Positions 9,821 through 63,409 of a DNA stretch of 64,000 bases are shown here, piece after piece. This DNA comes from Escherichia phage Bp7, in sequence record NC_019500.1; one strand, written 5' to 3'. The notes beneath the pieces were generated by a model that was not told the DNA's origin, did not search any database, and was given only the letters and a program-made list of their open reading frames with translations. Every line of letters begins with the position of its first letter. Positions within the stretch are counted from its first letter, which is position 1. The position numbers were made by a program, and so were the translations under genes.

Positions 9821-10455
9821 ATGTCTAAAATTACTTATATCATCAAAGCTTCTGAAGACGCCCTGAATGAAAAAACGGCTTCGATCTTAGTACATATCAT
9901 CAAGCATAACTTCATCACTTCAGGCGAAGTCCGTGAAGCCCTGAGTGAGCAATTTAGTGCTGCGGTAGTTAACTCTAATATCGGTGTATTAATTAAGAAA
10001 GGATTCATCGAAAATCTGGTGACGGACTAGTGGCTACAGGTGAAGCAATGGACCTAGTTCAAAAAGCTGCTGACTTGTTCGCTTCTGAAAATGCTCCAGA
10101 GATGTTGGAAAAACGTAAAACGCGTAGTTCACGTGGTGTTACTCCTGAAATGGTAACACTGGCTGATGAAGTTAAAGCTTTATTAGAAGACCGTATCGAG
10201 ATTCGTGAAATTGCTGAAAACCGTAGCAACCTTGAAGTTCGATTCGCTAAACGTACCAACGGTATTCGTCAAATCGAAGTCCGTCGTGATGGAATGATGC
10301 GTATCTTCGGTTATAATATGACTGATAAAGAAAAACAAGTGTTTACTTCCTTGAATCTTGATGTTAAGATTAAGACTGGTGGTAAGAATACTTATATCGA
10401 CTTCCAAAACGTATCATCTGAAGTTATCAAAACCGTAACCAACGCAATTATCTGA
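9821..10455 (+). CDS. motA: MotA middle-transcription activator; reading frame needs a 1-nt correction at the A-run 10011-10014 (ORFs 9821..10030 and 10030..10455)
   Basis: N-terminal ORF MSKITYIIKASEDALNEKTASIL...NSNIGVLIKKGFIE and C-terminal ORF ...SENAPEMLEK...KRTNGIRQIEV...MRIFGYNM match T4 MotA domains; the +1 frame across the junction reads KSGDGLVATGEA, continuous with the T4-like sequence. Confidence 0.75.
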
Positions 10456-23259: not shown

Positions 23260-24207
23260 ATGAACGATTTAGATTTTTTACTTCCTGAAGAAGACCAACA
23301 AAAAGATGGATTTTTACTCCTAGATTTCAGCCAAATCATTATGGCGGCGGCTTTCCAAGAGTTTGGTGAGAATGCTGGATTTCCTAAAGTAACTACCGCA
23401 ATGCTTCGACACCTCGTGTTGAATTCAATTAAGAAAAACATTAAAGACTTCCGTAAACAAGGTTACAACCAATTAATTATTTGTGTTGATAACTCCAAAT
23501 CAGGTTATTGGCGTCGTCGTTATTCTTCTTATTATAAGAAAAACCGTGCTAAGGCTCGTGACGAATCACCATTTGATTGGGAAGGTTTATTCACAGCAAT
23601 GCATATTATTGTTGATGAACTGGAACAAAACATGCCTTATATTGTTATGAATATCGATACAATCGAAGCTGACGACCATATTGCTGTTTTAACCCGAATC
23701 CTTACGGCTTTAGGCCACCCTGTTATGATTGGTTCTTCTGATGGTGACTTTACCCAACTTCATAAATTCCCTGGTGTAAAACAATGGTCCCCAATGCAGA
23801 AAAAATTCGTCAAAACAAAATCTGGTGATGCATTGCTTGATTGCGTGACTAAGGTTGTTAAAGGTGACCGTAAAGATAACGTCGCGAGTATTAAAGTTCG
23901 TGGTGATTATTGGTTGACCATGGTTGAAGGCGAGCGTACTCCTAGCACTCGTGCCAAGGAACTTGAAGCAATTGCTCTTAATTATTATGACCATGATATA
24001 ATTAAAACACTTCTTACTGAAGAACAATATGAACGTTTCTGTGAAAACCAAATCTTAATTGATATGGACTTTATTCCGGATGATATTGTTGCTTTAATTA
24101 CTGAAAGATATAATACGTATAACAAACCTTCGAAATCTAAAGTTTATCCTTATTTCGTTAAATCGGGTTTGTCTAAACTAACCGCTACAGTAGCTGATTT
24201 TTATTAA
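23260..24207 (+). CDS. rnh: RNase H (5'-3' exonuclease/flap endonuclease)
   Basis: 315 aa; LNSIK, CVDN.KSGYWRR..YYKKNR, EADDHIAVL, SSDGDFTQLHK, KDNVASIKVR match T4 RNase H. Confidence 0.9.
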   Translation: MNDLDFLLPEEDQQKDGFLLLDFSQIIMAAAFQEFGENAGFPKVTTAMLRHLVLNSIKKNIKDFRKQGYNQLIICVDNSKSGYWRRRYSSYYKKNRAKARDESPFDWEGLFTAMHIIVDELEQNMPYIVMNIDTIEADDHIAVLTRILTALGHPVMIGSSDGDFTQLHKFPGVKQWSPMQKKFVKTKSGDALLDCVTKVVKGDRKDNVASIKVRGDYWLTMVEGERTPSTRAKELEAIALNYYDHDIIKTLLTEEQYERFCENQILIDMDFIPDDIVALITERYNTYNKPSKSKVYPYFVKSGLSKLTATVADFY

Positions 24208-24770: not shown

Positions 24771-25420
24771 TTAAGATTCGCATGCCACCAAACAATAACC
24801 GTATGGTGAACGGCAAAAGTGTATATTCCCTATATTTGATGTTAAAGCATCATTTCAACGCCAAATACGACGTTATCAAATACAACTGGGTCATGCGAAT
24901 CTCTGATACGGCTTATCAAAAACGTCGTGACAAATATTTCTTTGAGAAATTGAGTGATAAATACACTTTGAAAGAGCTTGCTCTTATATTCATGAGTAAC
25001 TTGGTAGCTAACCAAGACGCATGGATTGGCGACATCAGTGATGCTGACGCCTTAGTCTTTTACCGAGAATATATCGGTAGACTTAAAAGAATAAAACAAG
25101 TTTTTGAGGATGATATCAAAAACATTTATTATTTTAGTAAGAAAGTGGAAGTTCAAGCGCTTTCTGAAATTTTTGATTATAATAAAAAAGTTAACTCGAG
25201 CTATATTTTTAAGCTCCTTCAATCGAATGTTATTTCATTCGAAACGTTTATTTTGCTTGATTCATTTATGGATATAATTGATAAGCACGATGAAAAGACT
25301 AACGATTTAGTGTGGTCTAAGTATTCGACTAAATTAAATGCTTACAAAAAAATTCTTATAGTAGATTCTATTGAGGCTCGTAAATTGTTCATTGAAACAA
25401 TTAAGGGTTGTAAATTTTGA
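24767..25420 (+). CDS. 59: gp59 helicase-loading protein
   Basis: 217 aa (same as T4); KSVYSLYLM.K.H.N.KYDVIKYNW.MR.SD.AYQKRRDKYFF.KLS.KY.LKELALIF.SNLVANQDAWIGDISDADALVFYREYIGRLK almost identical to T4 gp59. Confidence 0.9.
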   Translation: MIKIRMPPNNNRMVNGKSVYSLYLMLKHHFNAKYDVIKYNWVMRISDTAYQKRRDKYFFEKLSDKYTLKELALIFMSNLVANQDAWIGDISDADALVFYREYIGRLKRIKQVFEDDIKNIYYFSKKVEVQALSEIFDYNKKVNSSYIFKLLQSNVISFETFILLDSFMDIIDKHDEKTNDLVWSKYSTKLNAYKKILIVDSIEARKLFIETIKGCKF

Positions 25421-26052
25421 ATATAGTTTATAAAATGACTTGGCTTAATCGTCAGGCTAATAATATTAAGCCGTTTTCGTACATAGGTTCTAAAACTAAT
25501 TGTACTTTTGAAAATGGCGTGATTATTGACTGTAAAGGTAAAGAGTATTGGACCTCTTGCGAGCAATCAAGATTTAAAGAGGCCATCGAAGAAGAAAAAC
25601 CTATTGTTGAAATTTTGGCTATAACGCCATTTGATATTGTTATTAATATTGAACGTTCAGAACAATTGGAAGTTCAAGCTAGAGATAATGATGATTATTT
25701 TAATTTGGTTTATGCCGGTGGCGGATTTGGAGTCTTTGGATGCACTCACCCAGCCAAACGTCCTGAAGTTAGAGCCCATATGAAAGCTGCTAACTATATG
25801 AATCAACCCGATTACCGTCCTTGGAAAACTTCTAGAGCAAACCCTTTAGATTGGATGCTTAGTGATATTGCTTATACTAATTATTGTATAATTAATTCTA
25901 GTGGAAGAGCTTGTGGATGGAGGCGTCTCATTAACTCTGGTATAAATGTTAGTGAAACTACATCAAAGAGTATGATTAAACAATTTAATGAGGGTTGGGT
26001 TCCTAATGATGACCCTGAATTCATTAAGTTAAAAATGCTTTATTCGAAGTGA
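25417..26052 (+). CDS. ORF at the segG position; possible degenerate GIY-YIG-type homing endonuclease (start TTG 25417 or ATG 25435)
   Basis: inserted between 59 and 32 where T4 carries segG; N-terminus IVYK...PFSYIGSKT loosely resembles GIY...YIG; overlaps gp59 stop. Confidence 0.4.
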   Translation: MNIVYKMTWLNRQANNIKPFSYIGSKTNCTFENGVIIDCKGKEYWTSCEQSRFKEAIEEEKPIVEILAITPFDIVINIERSEQLEVQARDNDDYFNLVYAGGGFGVFGCTHPAKRPEVRAHMKAANYMNQPDYRPWKTSRANPLDWMLSDIAYTNYCIINSSGRACGWRRLINSGINVSETTSKSMIKQFNEGWVPNDDPEFIKLKMLYSK

Positions 26053-32561: not shown

Positions 32562-33236
32562 ATGTCTACAGTTTTTAATACTACCCCAGTTGATGTTTTA
32601 GTCGAGCCGATGTTCTTTGGTTCAGGATTAGGTATCGCCCGTTATGATATCCAACGTCATAAAGTGTTCGAAGAGCTTTGTGAAAAGCAACTATCATTTT
32701 TCTGGCGTCCAGAGGAAGTTAACTTGATGATGGACTCTGCGCAGTTAATAAGCTTCCAGAGTTCCAACAAAATATATTTACCAATAACTTGAAATATCAG
32801 TCGCTTTTGGACAGTATTCAGGGCCGGGCTCCTTCTGCTGCACTCCAAGCCTTGATTTCTGACCCTAGCCTTGATACATGGGTGGCAACATGGACCTTTA
32901 GTGAAACTATTCACTCGCGTTCGTATACCCATATCATGCGTAACCTCTATACAGACCCATCTAAGGTATTTGATGAAATTCTGTTAGATGACGCTATCAT
33001 GAAGCGCGCTGAATCCATTGGTCGTTATTATGATGACGTTATTGAGAAAACTAGATATTGGCAGAATGCTAAAGCTGATATTGAGTACCAAAAAGAAATT
33101 AACGCAGACGAAGATGATATTGAAGATGCCATAGAGCATGAGATGTATTGGAAACGTGAACTGATGCGTTCTCTTTATCTCTGTTTGCATGTTATCAATG
33201 CCTTAGAAGCTATTCGTTTTTATGTATCTTTTGCGT
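32562..33236 (+). CDS. nrdB: ribonucleotide reductase small subunit, exon 1; apparent 1-nt frameshift near 32723-32750 (ORFs 32562..32792 and 32789..33238)
   Basis: N-terminus ...FFWRPEEV in one frame; downstream NrdB motifs [35 protein letters not shown] in the -1 frame; exon ends with U at 33236. Confidence 0.8.
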
Positions 33237-33320
33237 AAAATGCGCCTTTAAACGGTAACGTTTATCGAAAACTCCTTTAATTGCTGGAAAGTCCTTTATA
33301 GGAAAACTAGCAGCCAAGGT

Positions 33321-33354
33321 TTTGCTTGCACCTTTAATTAGTATAATATAAATA
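33321..33354 (+). promoter_or_regulatory. candidate middle (MotA-box-like + TATAAT) and late (TATAAATA) promoters upstream of the intron endonuclease ORF
   Basis: tttgcttgca 33321-33330, TATAAT 33342-33347, TATAAATA 33347-33354, SD aagagga 33367-33373. Confidence 0.35.
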
Positions 33355-33381
33355 TGATTATACTTTTAAGAGGATGCACAA

Positions 33382-34188
33382 TTGAACTATAGAAAAATTT
33401 GGATAGATGCTAACGGACCTATACCTAAAGATTCTGATGGAAGAACATACGAAATCCATCATAAAGACGGTAACCGTGAAAATAATGATTTAGATAATTT
33501 GATGTGCCTTTCTATACAGGAACATTATGATATACATTTAGCTCAAAAAGATTACCAGGCTTGTCATGCTATAAAGCTTAGAATGAAATATTCTCCTGAA
33601 GAAATTTCTGAATTAGCTTCTAAAGCCGCAAAATCTAGAGAAATCCAGATTTTTAATATCCCTGAAGTACGAGCTAAAAATATTGCCTCTATTAAATCTA
33701 AGATAGAAAATGGTACATTTCATCTTTTAGACGGTGAAATACAGCGTAAATCTAATTTAAATAGAGTTGCATTAGGTATACATAATTTCTCTAGAGGAGC
33801 CCATGCAAAAGTTAAAGAACGCAATATTGCAGCTATAAAAGAAGGTACTCATGTATTTTGCGGTGGTAAAATGCAGTCAGAAACTCAATCAAAACGGGTA
33901 AATGACGGTTCACATCATTTCTTGTCAGAAGACCATAAGAAAAGAACATCAGCAAAAACATTAGAAATGGTTAAGAACGGGACCCATCCTGCACAAAAAG
34001 AAATCACATGTGATTTCTGCGGTCACATTGGTAAAGGTCCTGGATTTTATCTAAAACATAATGACAGATGTAAATTAAATCCAAATAGAATTCAATTGAA
34101 TTGTCCATATTGTGATAAGAAAGATTTATCACCATCAACATATAAACGATGGCACGGCGACAATTGCAAAGCAAGGTTCAACGACTAG
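33382..34188 (+). CDS. HNH-family homing endonuclease (I-TevIII-like), intron-encoded; apparent TTG start
   Basis: 268 aa; N-terminal HNH motif EIHHKDGNRENNDLDNLMCLS..EH and C-terminal Cys/His-rich region (CDFCGH, CPYCDK); lies in the nrdB intron as I-TevIII does. Confidence 0.8.
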   Translation: MNYRKIWIDANGPIPKDSDGRTYEIHHKDGNRENNDLDNLMCLSIQEHYDIHLAQKDYQACHAIKLRMKYSPEEISELASKAAKSREIQIFNIPEVRAKNIASIKSKIENGTFHLLDGEIQRKSNLNRVALGIHNFSRGAHAKVKERNIAAIKEGTHVFCGGKMQSETQSKRVNDGSHHFLSEDHKKRTSAKTLEMVKNGTHPAQKEITCDFCGHIGKGPGFYLKHNDRCKLNPNRIQLNCPYCDKKDLSPSTYKRWHGDNCKARFND

Positions 34189-34324
34189 TCTTCGGACGTA
34201 GGGTCAAGCGACTCGAAATGGGGAGAATCCCTCTGGGATTGTGATATAGTCTGGTCTGCATAGTAATATGTAGCAGTTCATAAGAGAACGGGTTGAGAAT
34301 TAGCGAGCTCAATCGAACATAACG

Positions 34325-34827
34325 GTACCTTTAACTTCCATAAGAACATGGAAATCATGGAAGGTAATGCTAAGATTATGAAGTTCATTGCACGTGATGA
34401 ACAGCTCCACCTTAAAGGCACCCAGTACATTATTCGTCAGCTCCAACTTGGTACTGATGGCGACGAATGGGTTAAAATTGCTCAAGAGTGCGAACAAGAA
34501 GCAGTTGATATTTTCATGGAAGTTAACCGTCAAGAAAAAGAATGGGCCGCTCACCTGTTCAAAGATGGTACTTGCCCTGGATTAAATACTCAGAACATGG
34601 GTGCTTTTGTCGATTACCTGACAGTTTCTCGTATGAAGCAATGTGGCTTACCGTGTCCTATTACTGATGCTCCTACTCGCCATCCTTATCCTTGGATTCG
34701 CGAATACCTGAACTCTGATGCTGTACAGGCTGCTCCTCAGGAAGTGGAAATCAGTTCTTACCTTGTAGCACAAATTGATAACGATGTTGATGAAAAAGTA
34801 ATGGCATCGTACAAGAAATATTTTTAA
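34325..34827 (+). CDS. nrdB: ribonucleotide reductase small subunit, exon 2
   Basis: ELMEGNAKI...ARDE.LHL.GTQ...C-terminal APQEVE.SSYLV.QID; in frame after splicing. Confidence 0.8.
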
Positions 34828-60175: not shown

Positions 60176-60403
60176 TTAGAAATCTTCCTCTTCCTCGTCG
60201 TCCATCGACTCCAATTCAGCTCTCTTACCAGCCAATGCATCACGCACGCTAATATCATCCGAATCACGAAGTTCGGCTTCCTTACTACGAGTTTTGTAAT
60301 ACTTTTCCAATTCCTTCAGACCATCCATAGTCTGACAAGAACCAATTTTAGCCATGAAGCTTTCAATAGATGCTTCCTGAATAACTTCTTTAAAGGTTTT
60401 CAT
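60176..60403 (-). CDS. UvsW.1 small acidic protein
   Basis: 75 aa (T4 UvsW.1 76 aa) with acidic C-terminal tail DDEEEEDF. Confidence 0.6.
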   Translation of the reverse strand: MKTFKEVIQEASIESFMAKIGSCQTMDGLKELEKYYKTRSKEAELRDSDDISVRDALAGKRAELESMDDEEEEDF

Positions 60404-61182
60404 AATATTTCCTCGAAAAATTTGGTAACCATTTTACCGTAATGCACATTAGGATAACCGGCTTTAATGGCTTCTTTTGTAAATTTACCAACTTTAAGCT
60501 TTCCTGTATTTATCCAAAGCTCTTTAAGCTCATCATACATTAACCAGTGTGGATATTTCTTAGCCAAAGTAGCTTGCCAATTTTTAGAATGGTCCTCAGA
60601 CCTAAACGATTTCTTTACACCTTTATTGGCTTTGCCAGCTTTTGAACACGTTTCATAATCTCCGGCTTTAATAGGTGTAAATCCTTTCATTGCTTTAGAC
60701 CTTTTGGCTATGGTCTCTTTGGATTGCTTGGAGCCTTTATTTTTGGTCCAAGCCTTTTCTAAAGCTTTTAATTTGGCTTCTGTTAATCCAACTTTAGCCA
60801 TAGCTTTTCGGTGTATTTCTCTTCGTTCATCAGTCCATTCATAAGAACCGTTTGTATTACCAATCATGGCTTCGCTTATTAATCTAGAAGCATTTTCTTT
60901 TAAAATGGAAATAGACCTAGAGCTTATCTCATTTAATCTTTTGCCACATGTCATACCAAATGCGGCACGCCATAATTTTCCACCTTGAGCTTTAGCCAAG
61001 ATTATATGGCCCAAAATATGTTCCCTAATAGTCAATGCAACTAAATTGTTAGGGTCATCGGAACCACCTATCGACTTAGGAATAATATGATGAATTTCGA
61101 TTTTACAGGGCGCAGTAGCTTTGGTCCATCCTCTGGACCTAGCATTCTCTATTAAATCATCGTAAATTTTCTGATAATTCAA
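60400..61182 (-). CDS. free-standing HNH homing endonuclease inserted between uvsW and uvsW.1
   Basis: 260 aa; N-terminal HNH motif CKIEIHHIIPKSIGGSDDPNNLVALTIREH; basic C-terminal DNA-binding-like region; start and stop overlap both neighbours. Confidence 0.75.
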   Translation of the reverse strand: MNYQKIYDDLIENARSRGWTKATAPCKIEIHHIIPKSIGGSDDPNNLVALTIREHILGHIILAKAQGGKLWRAAFGMTCGKRLNEISSRSISILKENASRLISEAMIGNTNGSYEWTDERREIHRKAMAKVGLTEAKLKALEKAWTKNKGSKQSKETIAKRSKAMKGFTPIKAGDYETCSKAGKANKGVKKSFRSEDHSKNWQATLAKKYPHWLMYDELKELWINTGKLKVGKFTKEAIKAGYPNVHYGKMVTKFFEEIL

Positions 61183-62682
61183 AGCTGCACCTCTTTCATA
61201 ACATAATTAAATTTCTCGTCGGCGTATCGTTGTATACGTTCCAATCCATGTTTCAGGCAATAATTTAAATGAACATATTTCTTTTTAGAATCTTTAGATT
61301 TAGGGCGGACTCCCATATCATCCACGAGGTCCCAGACTTGGGCCACTTGTTTGCTATCGTGCTTACGTAGAACACGCCCAATTGTTTGCAGAACAATGAT
61401 TTTAGATTTTACGCCGTGAGCAAATACAACGTGGTGAAGGTTCTTAACGGAAATACCAGTAGAGAACACACCATAACTTGCCACAACAATAATACCCTTA
61501 CCATTTTCCGCCATTACTTTCAGAGCATTACGCGTTTCGGTATTAACTTCACCTGATACGTAATAAACTTCTTTATGTTGCTCTTTAACCATTTCAAAAA
61601 GAGTTTTACCGTGTTCGATGTTTTTAAACATCAGGAATACGTTCTCTTCTTTCTTAGCGAGTTTAACAGCTAAATTAGCAACCCATTTATTACGACGAGT
61701 AGCCTTAGTAATGACCTTGATTTCTGATTGGTAATCTTTACCTTTCATCTTAACAGTGAATTCGTCTGGGTATCGAAGGAAAATACTGTTGATTTTAAGG
61801 TCGGTAACCTGTCCTTCTTCCATTAACTGGGAAGTGGATACCGGCTTAAACACATCACCAAACAAACCCATATATTGCATTAAATTAGCTTTACCATCTT
61901 TTAAAGAACCAGACAAACCGAATTTAAACATACAGTTGGTTAGGCCTTCGATGATAGTAGAAATAGATTTACCTGTAGCCAAATGGCATTCGTCGTTCAT
62001 AAACATACCGAACTGAGCAAACCATTCTTTAGGTTGCTTGATAGCAGTTTGATAAGTTGAAACGTAAATCATTGCATCAGAATCACGAGCAGTACCTGAA
62101 CGAATACCAAGCATTGCTGCTTTAGGGAACAATCGATAATCGATGAAGTCATTAATCATCTGGTCGACAAGTGCAGTAGTAGGAACCAGAATAAGGATTT
62201 TACCTTCATAGTTCTCAACGTAATATCGACTCAGGAGCGCCTGGATTAATGATTTACCTGCGGATGTAGGTAAATTCAGAATTGCACGACGTTTTGTCAG
62301 GCCGTTGTATACGGCTTCATTCTGATACCAATGAGGCTCAATCTTGGTAGACCCTGAATAAATTTCTTGAGAAGCTACCCATGAATCAAAATCTTCACGA
62401 GAAATATCTTCCTGTTCAAGAATACGCGGGTCAATCCACAGAGAATATTCAAATTGTTCAGCGAACTTTTTAATTTGAGGGACAAGTCCATAAGGGCAAG
62501 TTTACGGCAGTTACGTAATCTAGAAGAAGAAGACTTCCATCCCATTGCCCATAACGAAATTTAGGGTTGAATTTATATCCATCGGCTTCAAAGCTAAAAT
62601 AGTCTCTGAGTTCGTAGAATGTGGATTCATCACACTCAATACGAACATGACTAAAATTATCGAAATGTACTTGAATTTGCAT
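61179..62682 (-). CDS. uvsW: UvsW helicase (SF2); reading frame needs a 1-nt correction at the G-run 62494-62496 (ORFs 62470..62682 and 61179..62159)
   Basis: N-terminal ORF VHFDNFSHVRIECDESTF.ELRDYFSFEADGYKFNPKFRYG.WDG matches the T4 UvsW N-terminus; the -1 frame continues with PYGLVPQIKKF...NLPTSAGKS (Walker A), DECH, QTIGRVLR. Confidence 0.8.
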
Positions 62683-62737: not shown

Positions 62738-63409
62738 ATGGATACTCAATATATTGAAGAGCTTCGTGCACTCGAAGATAAAAAAGAAGCTAAAGCTAAG
62801 TTAATCGAATACGGCGAACAGTTCGGTTTAAAACTTAAGAAAACCCGTTCGTTTGATAATTTGATTATCGATATCTCTGAAGGCCTTAAAGCCCTGGCTG
62901 ATGAACCACTTCCAGAAACCGAAGGGTTGTCTATTTCTGATTTGATTGATGCTGATAACGAACTCACCGGTGGTAATGACTTTATCGAAGGTGTAGAACC
63001 AGCTAAAGAAGAAGCCACCCTGTTGTTCGATGCTCCTGAGGCTGTAGTCGAAGTCATTGAGGTAGCCGAACTTCCTAAGGTCGAGATTATTGAAGAAGAT
63101 GTCCCATTTGACGAAGAGAAATTCAAAGAGGCTGTAGCCAAGGTTGTTGAATTGGAAAAACCTGTATTCTCTTTACCTGAAAACTTCAGCCCTAATCTTT
63201 TGCTTATCGGTAAGAACCCTGGCTATTGCACCGTTCCTTGGTGGATTTACCAATGGATTTCTGAGACCCCGGATTGGAAAGAACGTCCAACTGCTTTCCA
63301 ACATCCTTCTGCCCACCAAACATTATTTAGTCTGATTTATTACATTAATCGTAATGGTTCAGTATTAGTACGTGAAACTCGTAACTCATCTTTTGTCACT
63401 TTAAAATAA
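62738..63409 (+). CDS. inh: probable Inh (inhibitor of prohead protease); by size and position
   Basis: 223 aa, acidic, between uvsW and hoc as in T4. Confidence 0.5.
   Translation: MDTQYIEELRALEDKKEAKAKLIEYGEQFGLKLKKTRSFDNLIIDISEGLKALADEPLPETEGLSISDLIDADNELTGGNDFIEGVEPAKEEATLLFDAPEAVVEVIEVAELPKVEIIEEDVPFDEEKFKEAVAKVVELEKPVFSLPENFSPNLLLIGKNPGYCTVPWWIYQWISETPDWKERPTAFQHPSAHQTLFSLIYYINRNGSVLVRETRNSSFVTLK

Follow-up and report, generated by a model that had tools for sequence, protein, structure and literature searches.

Introduction

The gene uvsW, as it stands in the sequence record of Escherichia phage Bp7, cannot be read in a single frame: a 70-aa open reading frame (ORF) is followed by a 440-codon open frame in another phase, and an uninterrupted frame of about 500 codons is absent. 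The question raised by this locus is whether the break is one extra base, a genuine loss of the gene, a device of its expression, or an error in the record. In this study, the whole stretch of 64,000 nt of Bp7 (record NC_019500.1), hereafter the window, was analysed. The lesion was aligned between the window and UGJNEcP3, JS98 and PSD2002, with a global alignment in addition, and the whole window was scanned for frame breaks by tblastn with approximately 90 CDS annotated in relatives, the outcome holding for those of them that could be aligned at useful identity.

Results

Setting and identity of the interrupted gene

Judged by its sequence, the region around uvsW is that of a JS98-like (Dhakavirus) T4-type coliphage, and the best long match to the window in the phage collection is about 95-96% identical. 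The records nearest to the uvsW region are those of the Escherichia phages UGJNEcP3 (OV876907) and UGJNEcP4 (OV877765), with 96.3% nucleotide identity over 1661 nt, and about 50 other Dhakavirus genomes match the region at 91-94%. The T4-type synteny of inh, uvsW, uvsW.1 and uvsY is kept in the window, and the full order of inh, uvsW, an HNH homing-endonuclease gene, uvsW.1 and uvsY is identical in UGJNEcP3 (Table 1). The uvsW.1 protein is identical to its UGJNEcP3 counterpart, and the HNH endonuclease is identical to the annotated homing endonuclease at the same position in UGJNEcP3 at 259 of 261 aligned positions, the stop codon counted; its TTG start overlaps the uvsW stop (CTTTGAAT). UGJNEcP4 has the HNH endonuclease between uvsW and uvsW.1 as in UGJNEcP3, and no endonuclease gene lies between the two genes in JS98 and WG01. 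In PSD2002 the uvsW/uvsW.1 junction is occupied by an unnamed and shorter ORF of 696 nt (about 231 aa), and an annotated homing endonuclease lies under the uvsW-region match in UP19, the likeness of both to the window endonuclease being by position only.

Table 1. Features of the uvsW region of the Bp7 window (positions are those of the window)
Feature	Coordinates	Strand	Evidence
inh	62738..63409	+	
uvsW, whole gene	ATG 62682, stop 61179	-	
uvsW 5' ORF, 70 aa: 49 native UvsW residues and 21 aberrant/out-of-frame residues, TAA 62472-62470	62470..62682	-	
uvsW lesion, private 42-nt patch with 3 substitutions and ~4 insertions	62494..62535	-	alignments to relatives
CCC run (plus-strand GGG) in uvsW; CC in relatives	62494..62496	-	
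uvsW stretch with upstream and helicase frames both open; only possible joining site by frame change	62473..62501	-	
uvsW 3' open frame, 440 codons: end of UvsW_N and SF2 helicase core	61179..62501	-	
HNH homing-endonuclease gene, 260 aa, between uvsW and uvsW.1	60400..61182	-	Pfam HNH
uvsW.1, 75 aa, intact	60176..60403	-	Pfam PF11637 UvsW-1, E 2.5e-24

The two pieces of the broken gene were readily identified. The 70-aa ORF, read from 62682 to 62470, matches positions 2-60 of 81 of Pfam UvsW_N (E 1.6e-29), and the 3' frame matches positions 59-81 of the same family, followed by ResIII/DEAD and Helicase_C; the UvsW-type domain order (UvsW_N, ResIII/DEAD, Helicase_C) is accordingly present across the two pieces. 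When one C is removed, the repaired protein matches T4 UvsW (PDB 2OCA) over residues 1-500 with an E-value of 1e-254, and UvsW is 498 aa long in all five of the relatives translated (JS98, WG01, UGJNEcP3, PSD2002 and vB_EcoM_FB). The naming of the gene as uvsW in the first-pass annotation is upheld by the Pfam matches of both pieces and by the 2OCA match, and the gene is an ordinary uvsW orthologue; in T4 its product is the SF2 helicase that acts in recombination-dependent replication and unwinds R-loops.

Anatomy of the lesion

The same annotation had the 70-aa minus-strand ORF end in ...LLLLDYVTAVNLPLWTCPSN* and the other frame read TCPYGLVPQIKKFAEQ...LNLPTSAGKS..., and both readings were confirmed from the sequence, the second frame being open without a stop from 62501 to 61179. 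The break that it had put near codon 60 was placed at about codons 50-63. The minus-strand CCC (plus-strand GGG) to which it had traced the break is indeed present, and removal of one C does produce a continuous protein of the expected length of about 500 aa, as a 500-aa ORF with no internal stop was obtained. Its central claim, that the lesion is one extra base in the G-run, did not stand: the lesion is a 42-nt patch with a net gain of 7 nt and three nonsynonymous changes. The 86-nt query 62465-62550 is spanned by 79 nt in 55 of the 55 matching Dhakavirus records, which are shorter by 7 nt and not by 1, and over the uvsW region 1661 query bases are covered by 1654 bases of relatives.

At the lesion the relatives read GGACGTATTCGTCTTCTAGATTATAACCGTAAACTGCCTTATGG (G-RIRLLDYNRKLPY-G) and the window reads GGAAGTCTTCTTCTTCTAGATTACGTAACTGCCGTAAACTTGCCCTTATGG. 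The codons of the relatives are GGA CGT ATT CGT CTT CTA GAT TAT AAC CGT AAA CTG CCT TAT GGA, and those of the window are GGA AGT CTT CTT CTT CTA GAT TAC GTA ACT GCC GTA AAC TTG CCC TTA TGG A. The ancestral spacing is 64 nt (GRIRLLDYNRKLPYG), with an ancestral reading of GGACGTATTCGT...TTATAACCGTAAACTGCCTTATGG. Three consecutive codons are changed by one substitution each: C>A at 62535 (R50S), A>C at 62532 (I51L) and G>T at 62528 (R52L). About four small insertions totalling 7 nt lie between 62515 and 62494, namely two bases (CG) near 62515-62514, three near 62510-62507, a T at 62499/62498 and one more C in the run 62496-62494. Two of these insertions extend homopolymers (T>TT and CC>CCC). Since the extra C is one of seven extra bases, the frameshift is not assignable to that C specifically.

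At the level of the protein, the one-C-deleted Bp7 product would read WDGSLLLLDYVTAVNLPYG at the lesion, where WDGRIRLLDYNR-x-LP(Y/F)G stands in the UvsW proteins of Dhakavirus, T4 and CC31. The homologues from the RB49-like phage JSE, a Vibrio phage and a cyanophage retain the WDG(R/K)IRL(L/M) core, with Aeromonas phage 25 (WSGDIFLL) as the exception among the homologues fetched. The length of the loop is constant across these homologues except for the cyanophage, which has one more residue, and the first 142 residues of UvsW can be aligned gap-free with homologues as distant as about 52% identity. The repaired protein lacks the WDG-RIR-LL motif, conserved out to cyanophage, and carries a two-residue insertion found in no homologue. 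Because the removal of one C leaves the conserved motif lost and two residues in excess, we regard the whole 42-nt patch as the lesion.

Age and uniqueness of the lesion

The 438 codons downstream of the patch differ from those of UGJNEcP3 in 43 cases, all of them synonymous (protein 100% identical), and codons 1-49 differ in 5 cases, again without a nonsynonymous change. Going by these counts, uvsW outside the patch is under strict purifying selection. An evolved pseudogene is ruled out by the lack of nonsynonymous changes outside the patch, together with the finding of the lesion in none of the 55 related records. The lesion is therefore either very recent or not biological.

The exact 33-mer of the lesion is absent from the IMG/VR viral, metagenome and GTDB genome collections. 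A flank-anchored pattern search disclosed four contigs in IMG/VR, all with the normal spacing, and no match in the metagenome collection, and neither uvsW ORF product was found by exact-protein look-up in an index of 153 billion genes. Within the 64-kb window, on either strand, no match of at least 11 nt to the novel bases was detected and 10-mer matches were at chance level; a templated or ectopic source of these bases was rejected for want of such a donor in the window. Reports of a disrupted uvsW or motA in JS98-like phages were sought in the literature, with no relevant result.

Expression of the gene as written

With regard to expression, the upstream frame ends at 62472-62470, and the helicase frame is closed on its upstream side by a TAA at 62504-62502. 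The first ATG, GTG or TTG after this TAA in the helicase frame is at 62159, beyond the Walker A motif (LPTSAGKS), and a restart yielding a functional helicase was discarded on this ground. An ATT overlapping the stop (62474-62472) would yield a protein without the N-terminal domain. As written, Bp7 uvsW would thus give a 70-aa N-terminal stub only and no helicase product.

Companion frame breaks in motA and nrdB

The scan of the window against the CDS of relatives disclosed exactly three frame breaks, in uvsW, nrdB and motA. The motA gene (plus strand, ATG 9821, normal stop near 10455) carries a private one-base deletion of A5 to A4 at 10011-10014 in codon 64, reading ATCGAAAAATCT in WG01 and ATCGAAAATCT in the window, and the A5 run is kept in 42 of the 42 matching related records. 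The gene is divided into the ORFs 9821..10027 (activation domain) and 10030..10455 (DNA-binding domain), its protein is 100% identical to that of WG01 on both sides of the break, and more than 400 surrounding nucleotides are identical to WG01. Through the break, the DNA-binding domain is lost entirely, together with the end of the activation domain. In T4, deletion of motA is lethal and leaky point mutants give tiny plaques (Hinton's review, PMC2988021), so that a stock dominated by a motA frameshift is unlikely, and this in turn raises the prior for technical frame breaks in the Bp7 record.

In nrdB (plus strand, ATG 32562), TTT has become TT at 32745-32746 in codon 62, which leaves the ORFs 32562..32792 and 32789..33238; the site is 1 nt longer in all 27 matching records. 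This break lies within a divergent 5' patch of 261 nt that is only 89% identical to any record, with differences that are mostly synonymous; it has the look of a mosaic segment derived from a lineage not yet sampled. The three other private one-base indels found (17943, 27149 and 32548) are intergenic and look like ordinary variation. A suspected N-terminal truncation of gp52 was dismissed, as its gene is intact in the window, with a start of the T4 type.

The distances of the three breaks from their own ATG are 191-194 nt in motA, 184-185 nt in nrdB and 187-189 nt for the C-run of uvsW (codons 62-64), and the whole uvsW patch occupies offsets 148-189. In simulation, three random CDS positions fall within 10 nt of one another with a probability of about 2e-4, and within 45 nt with a probability of 3.4e-3, both being post hoc figures. 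No motif shared by the three breaks was detected; GGACT occurs near all three, with a simulated probability of 0.2-0.4. A private change of four bases (TTTAAAAAA to TTCCGTAAA) was noticed at 23451-23454 in rnh, whose ATG is at 23260, at an offset of 191-194. It was rejected as a fourth lesion at the same offset, as it is in frame: AAA>CGT alters all three codon bases and replaces Lys with Arg, a conservative exchange, and the change is probably ordinary variation.

Homing endonucleases and the nrdB insertion

A homing-endonuclease scar at uvsW was considered and gained no support from the comparisons made. UGJNEcP3 has the endonuclease gene adjacent to uvsW and no lesion. The site of SegE is placed in papers at or upstream of the 5' end of uvsW, with no coordinate matching codons 50-63. 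MobE nicks nrdB at nt 122-126 (PMC2790892), about 60 nt from the Bp7 nrdB break at nt 184-185. The MobE nick site in T2 nrdB corresponds to codon 42 (PMC2790892), and it is directly adjoined in the window by a private cluster of six substitutions at 32690-32696 (CAACTATCA vs CAGTTGAGT), all synonymous (Q-L-S), in nrdB codons 43-45. This cluster could be a target-site immunity polymorphism or a remnant of co-conversion; no mobE was found between nrdA and nrdB in the window.

Further downstream, an insertion of 1.09 kb in nrdB (33236-34326) is absent from JS98, WG01, UGJNEcP3 and FB, and many phages of the Tequatrovirus type have it, with an identity of about 89%. The inserted sequence contains an HNH_3 ORF of 268 aa that begins with TTG (33382..34188) and presumably resembles I-TevIII. 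At 34033..34273 it also gives an Rfam match to a group I intron, with a score below threshold (34 bits, E 1.3e-6). On these features the insertion, in a Dhakavirus, is predicted to be a group I intron that carries an endonuclease ORF. Again, an extra 211-aa ORF with a TTG start was observed at 25417-26052, between genes 59 and 32, which is the position of segG in T4. No such ORF is annotated there in JS98, WG01 and UGJNEcP3, one is annotated at the equivalent site in vB_EcoM_FB (the likeness being by position and length only), and no Pfam match was obtained for the window ORF.

Discussion

We consider that the uvsW patch is probably an error in the sequence record, with a technical cause that we infer from several observations. 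The consensus may rest at this point on low-quality or single-read data, or else a mutated clone or amplicon may have been sequenced. The lesion is private, as all 55 relatives are shorter, the four IMG/VR contigs are normal, and the 33-mer and the ORF products are unmatched; it is evolutionarily instantaneous, as shown by the ratios of synonymous to nonsynonymous differences on its two sides (43/0 and 5/0); and its 42 nt contain about ten edited bases, most of them inserted, a pattern that would resemble raw-read error and not a single spontaneous mutation. It also destroys WDG-RIR-LL and adds two residues to a segment otherwise free of gaps. The two further private one-base homopolymer deletions, in the otherwise conserved genes motA and nrdB, argue in the same direction, and with the deletion of motA being lethal in T4 a viable phage with all three lesions is unlikely. 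Against an error stand two observations: the rest of the window is clean among the alignable CDS, which does not describe a generally error-ridden assembly, and the near-equal offsets of the breaks (184-194 nt) are unexpected from random sequencing error.

A possible but clearly less probable reading is that the lesion is real, being a very recent and complex loss of function of uvsW in the stock or lineage, for instance by imprecise repair or slippage. Both uvsW and nrdB are non-essential for plaque formation in T4, and real null alleles of both could therefore occur; the otherwise clean assembly agrees with this reading, and so does the absence of nonsynonymous changes among the 43 differences downstream, as expected if the event is very recent. 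The genes uvsW and nrdB, moreover, adjoin homing-endonuclease genes, so that double-strand breaks and repair would be frequent there (PMC2790892), but UGJNEcP3, with the same endonuclease gene, has an intact uvsW. Ten edited bases in at least four separate events within 42 nt are atypical of a single mutation, the window offers no template of 11 nt or more for the new bases, the genome also carries the motA frameshift, which should be close to lethal, and the patch was found in no other public sequence.

It is unlikely that a single non-random cause, linked to how far each site lies from the start of its gene, underlies all three frame breaks. Speculatively, such a cause might be selection against toxic intact genes during cloning or amplification, a deliberate or engineered disruption, or some unknown process at 5' ends. 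The agreement of the offsets would arise by chance at about 2e-4, or at 3.4e-3 when the whole uvsW patch is counted, but the comparison is post hoc and covers three events only, no sequence motif common to the breaks was detected, and the lesions differ in kind, two being clean 1-nt deletions and the third a complex patch of +7. We know of no mechanism that fits a common offset of about 190 nt.

Still less probable is the single-base explanation of the first-pass annotation, which would require Bp7 to carry a natural in-frame variant (+2 codons, RIR>SLL) whose sole defect is one extra G/C at 62494-62496. The deletion of one C does open a frame of 500 aa, and the run is CC in the relatives and CCC in the window. 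Nevertheless, this variant would replace a motif kept from Dhakavirus to cyanophage and lengthen a segment that is gap-free down to about 52% identity, and with 0 amino-acid changes elsewhere relative to UGJNEcP3, five changed residues and a 2-aa insertion within 14 residues are not credible as drift.

We give hardly any weight to the reading in which the motA, nrdB and uvsW breaks are all real and have a shared cause acting at about 185-195 nt from the start codon; an example would be damage or error-prone repair linked to the 5' ends of genes in a phage deprived of the R-loop helicase UvsW. The least credible of all is programmed recoding, in which full-length UvsW would be made by a +1 shift on CCC-U (62496-62493) or by a hop from GGA to GGA in the style of gene 60: a +1 slip of tRNA-Pro from CCC to CCU is geometrically possible and gives ...NLPYGLVPQ..., and matched GGA codons (62538-62536 and 62489-62487) lie 46 nt apart in the right frames, but all relatives are single-frame and none needs or has a shift, both GGA codons occur in intact relatives too, the codon after the shift site is an ordinary UUA and the one after the take-off GGA is AGU and not a stop, the folding of the 94 nt downstream does not surpass that of shuffled sequence (z +0.59), the local fold for a bypass has a z of -1.12 with 25 of 200 shuffles folding equally well and no take-off stem-loop, and the product would still be without the conserved residues.

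If the patch is an artefact of the record, as we favor, the state of uvsW, motA and nrdB in the Bp7 record is no ground for annotating pseudogenes or for inferring that genes were lost. If the lesion is real, Bp7 would be a natural UvsW-null Dhakavirus with an ordinary loss-of-function allele, of modest interest for recombination-dependent replication. From T4 genetics, such a UvsW-null phage would be expected to be sensitive to UV and hydroxyurea, to perform less late recombination-dependent replication and to suppress the DNA-arrest phenotype of gene 59. Only the common offset of the breaks could point to something new, its support being a post hoc coincidence.

Comparison with known systems

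In comparison with T4 UvsW (PDB 2OCA and 1RIF), Bp7 has the gene position (inh, uvsW, uvsW.1, uvsY) and the domain order in common, whereas its frame is broken within the N-terminal domain, the equivalents of T4 R50-I51-R52 and the following loop are altered, and an HNH endonuclease gene lies between uvsW and uvsW.1. The intact uvsW of UGJNEcP3 and UGJNEcP4 is without the seven extra bases and the three substitutions and encodes a 498-aa protein, of which residues 61-498 are 100% identical to those of Bp7.

The genes-in-pieces made by homing endonucleases in T4-like phages offer another comparison, such as the split of the Aeh1 nrdA gene into nrdA-a and nrdA-b. Bp7 likewise has an HNH gene between uvsW and uvsW.1 and an nrdB intron with an endonuclease ORF. 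However, its uvsW break at codons 50-63 is about 1.3 kb from the endonuclease gene and has no inserted gene, and the 3' part of uvsW is without a start codon; the gene is not a functional split. Indel errors of the homopolymer or low-quality-consensus type in phage records are like the Bp7 breaks in being private and in affecting genes under perfect purifying selection; two of the three Bp7 breaks fit a homopolymer error, while uvsW carries a patch of several events and not a single homopolymer miscount.
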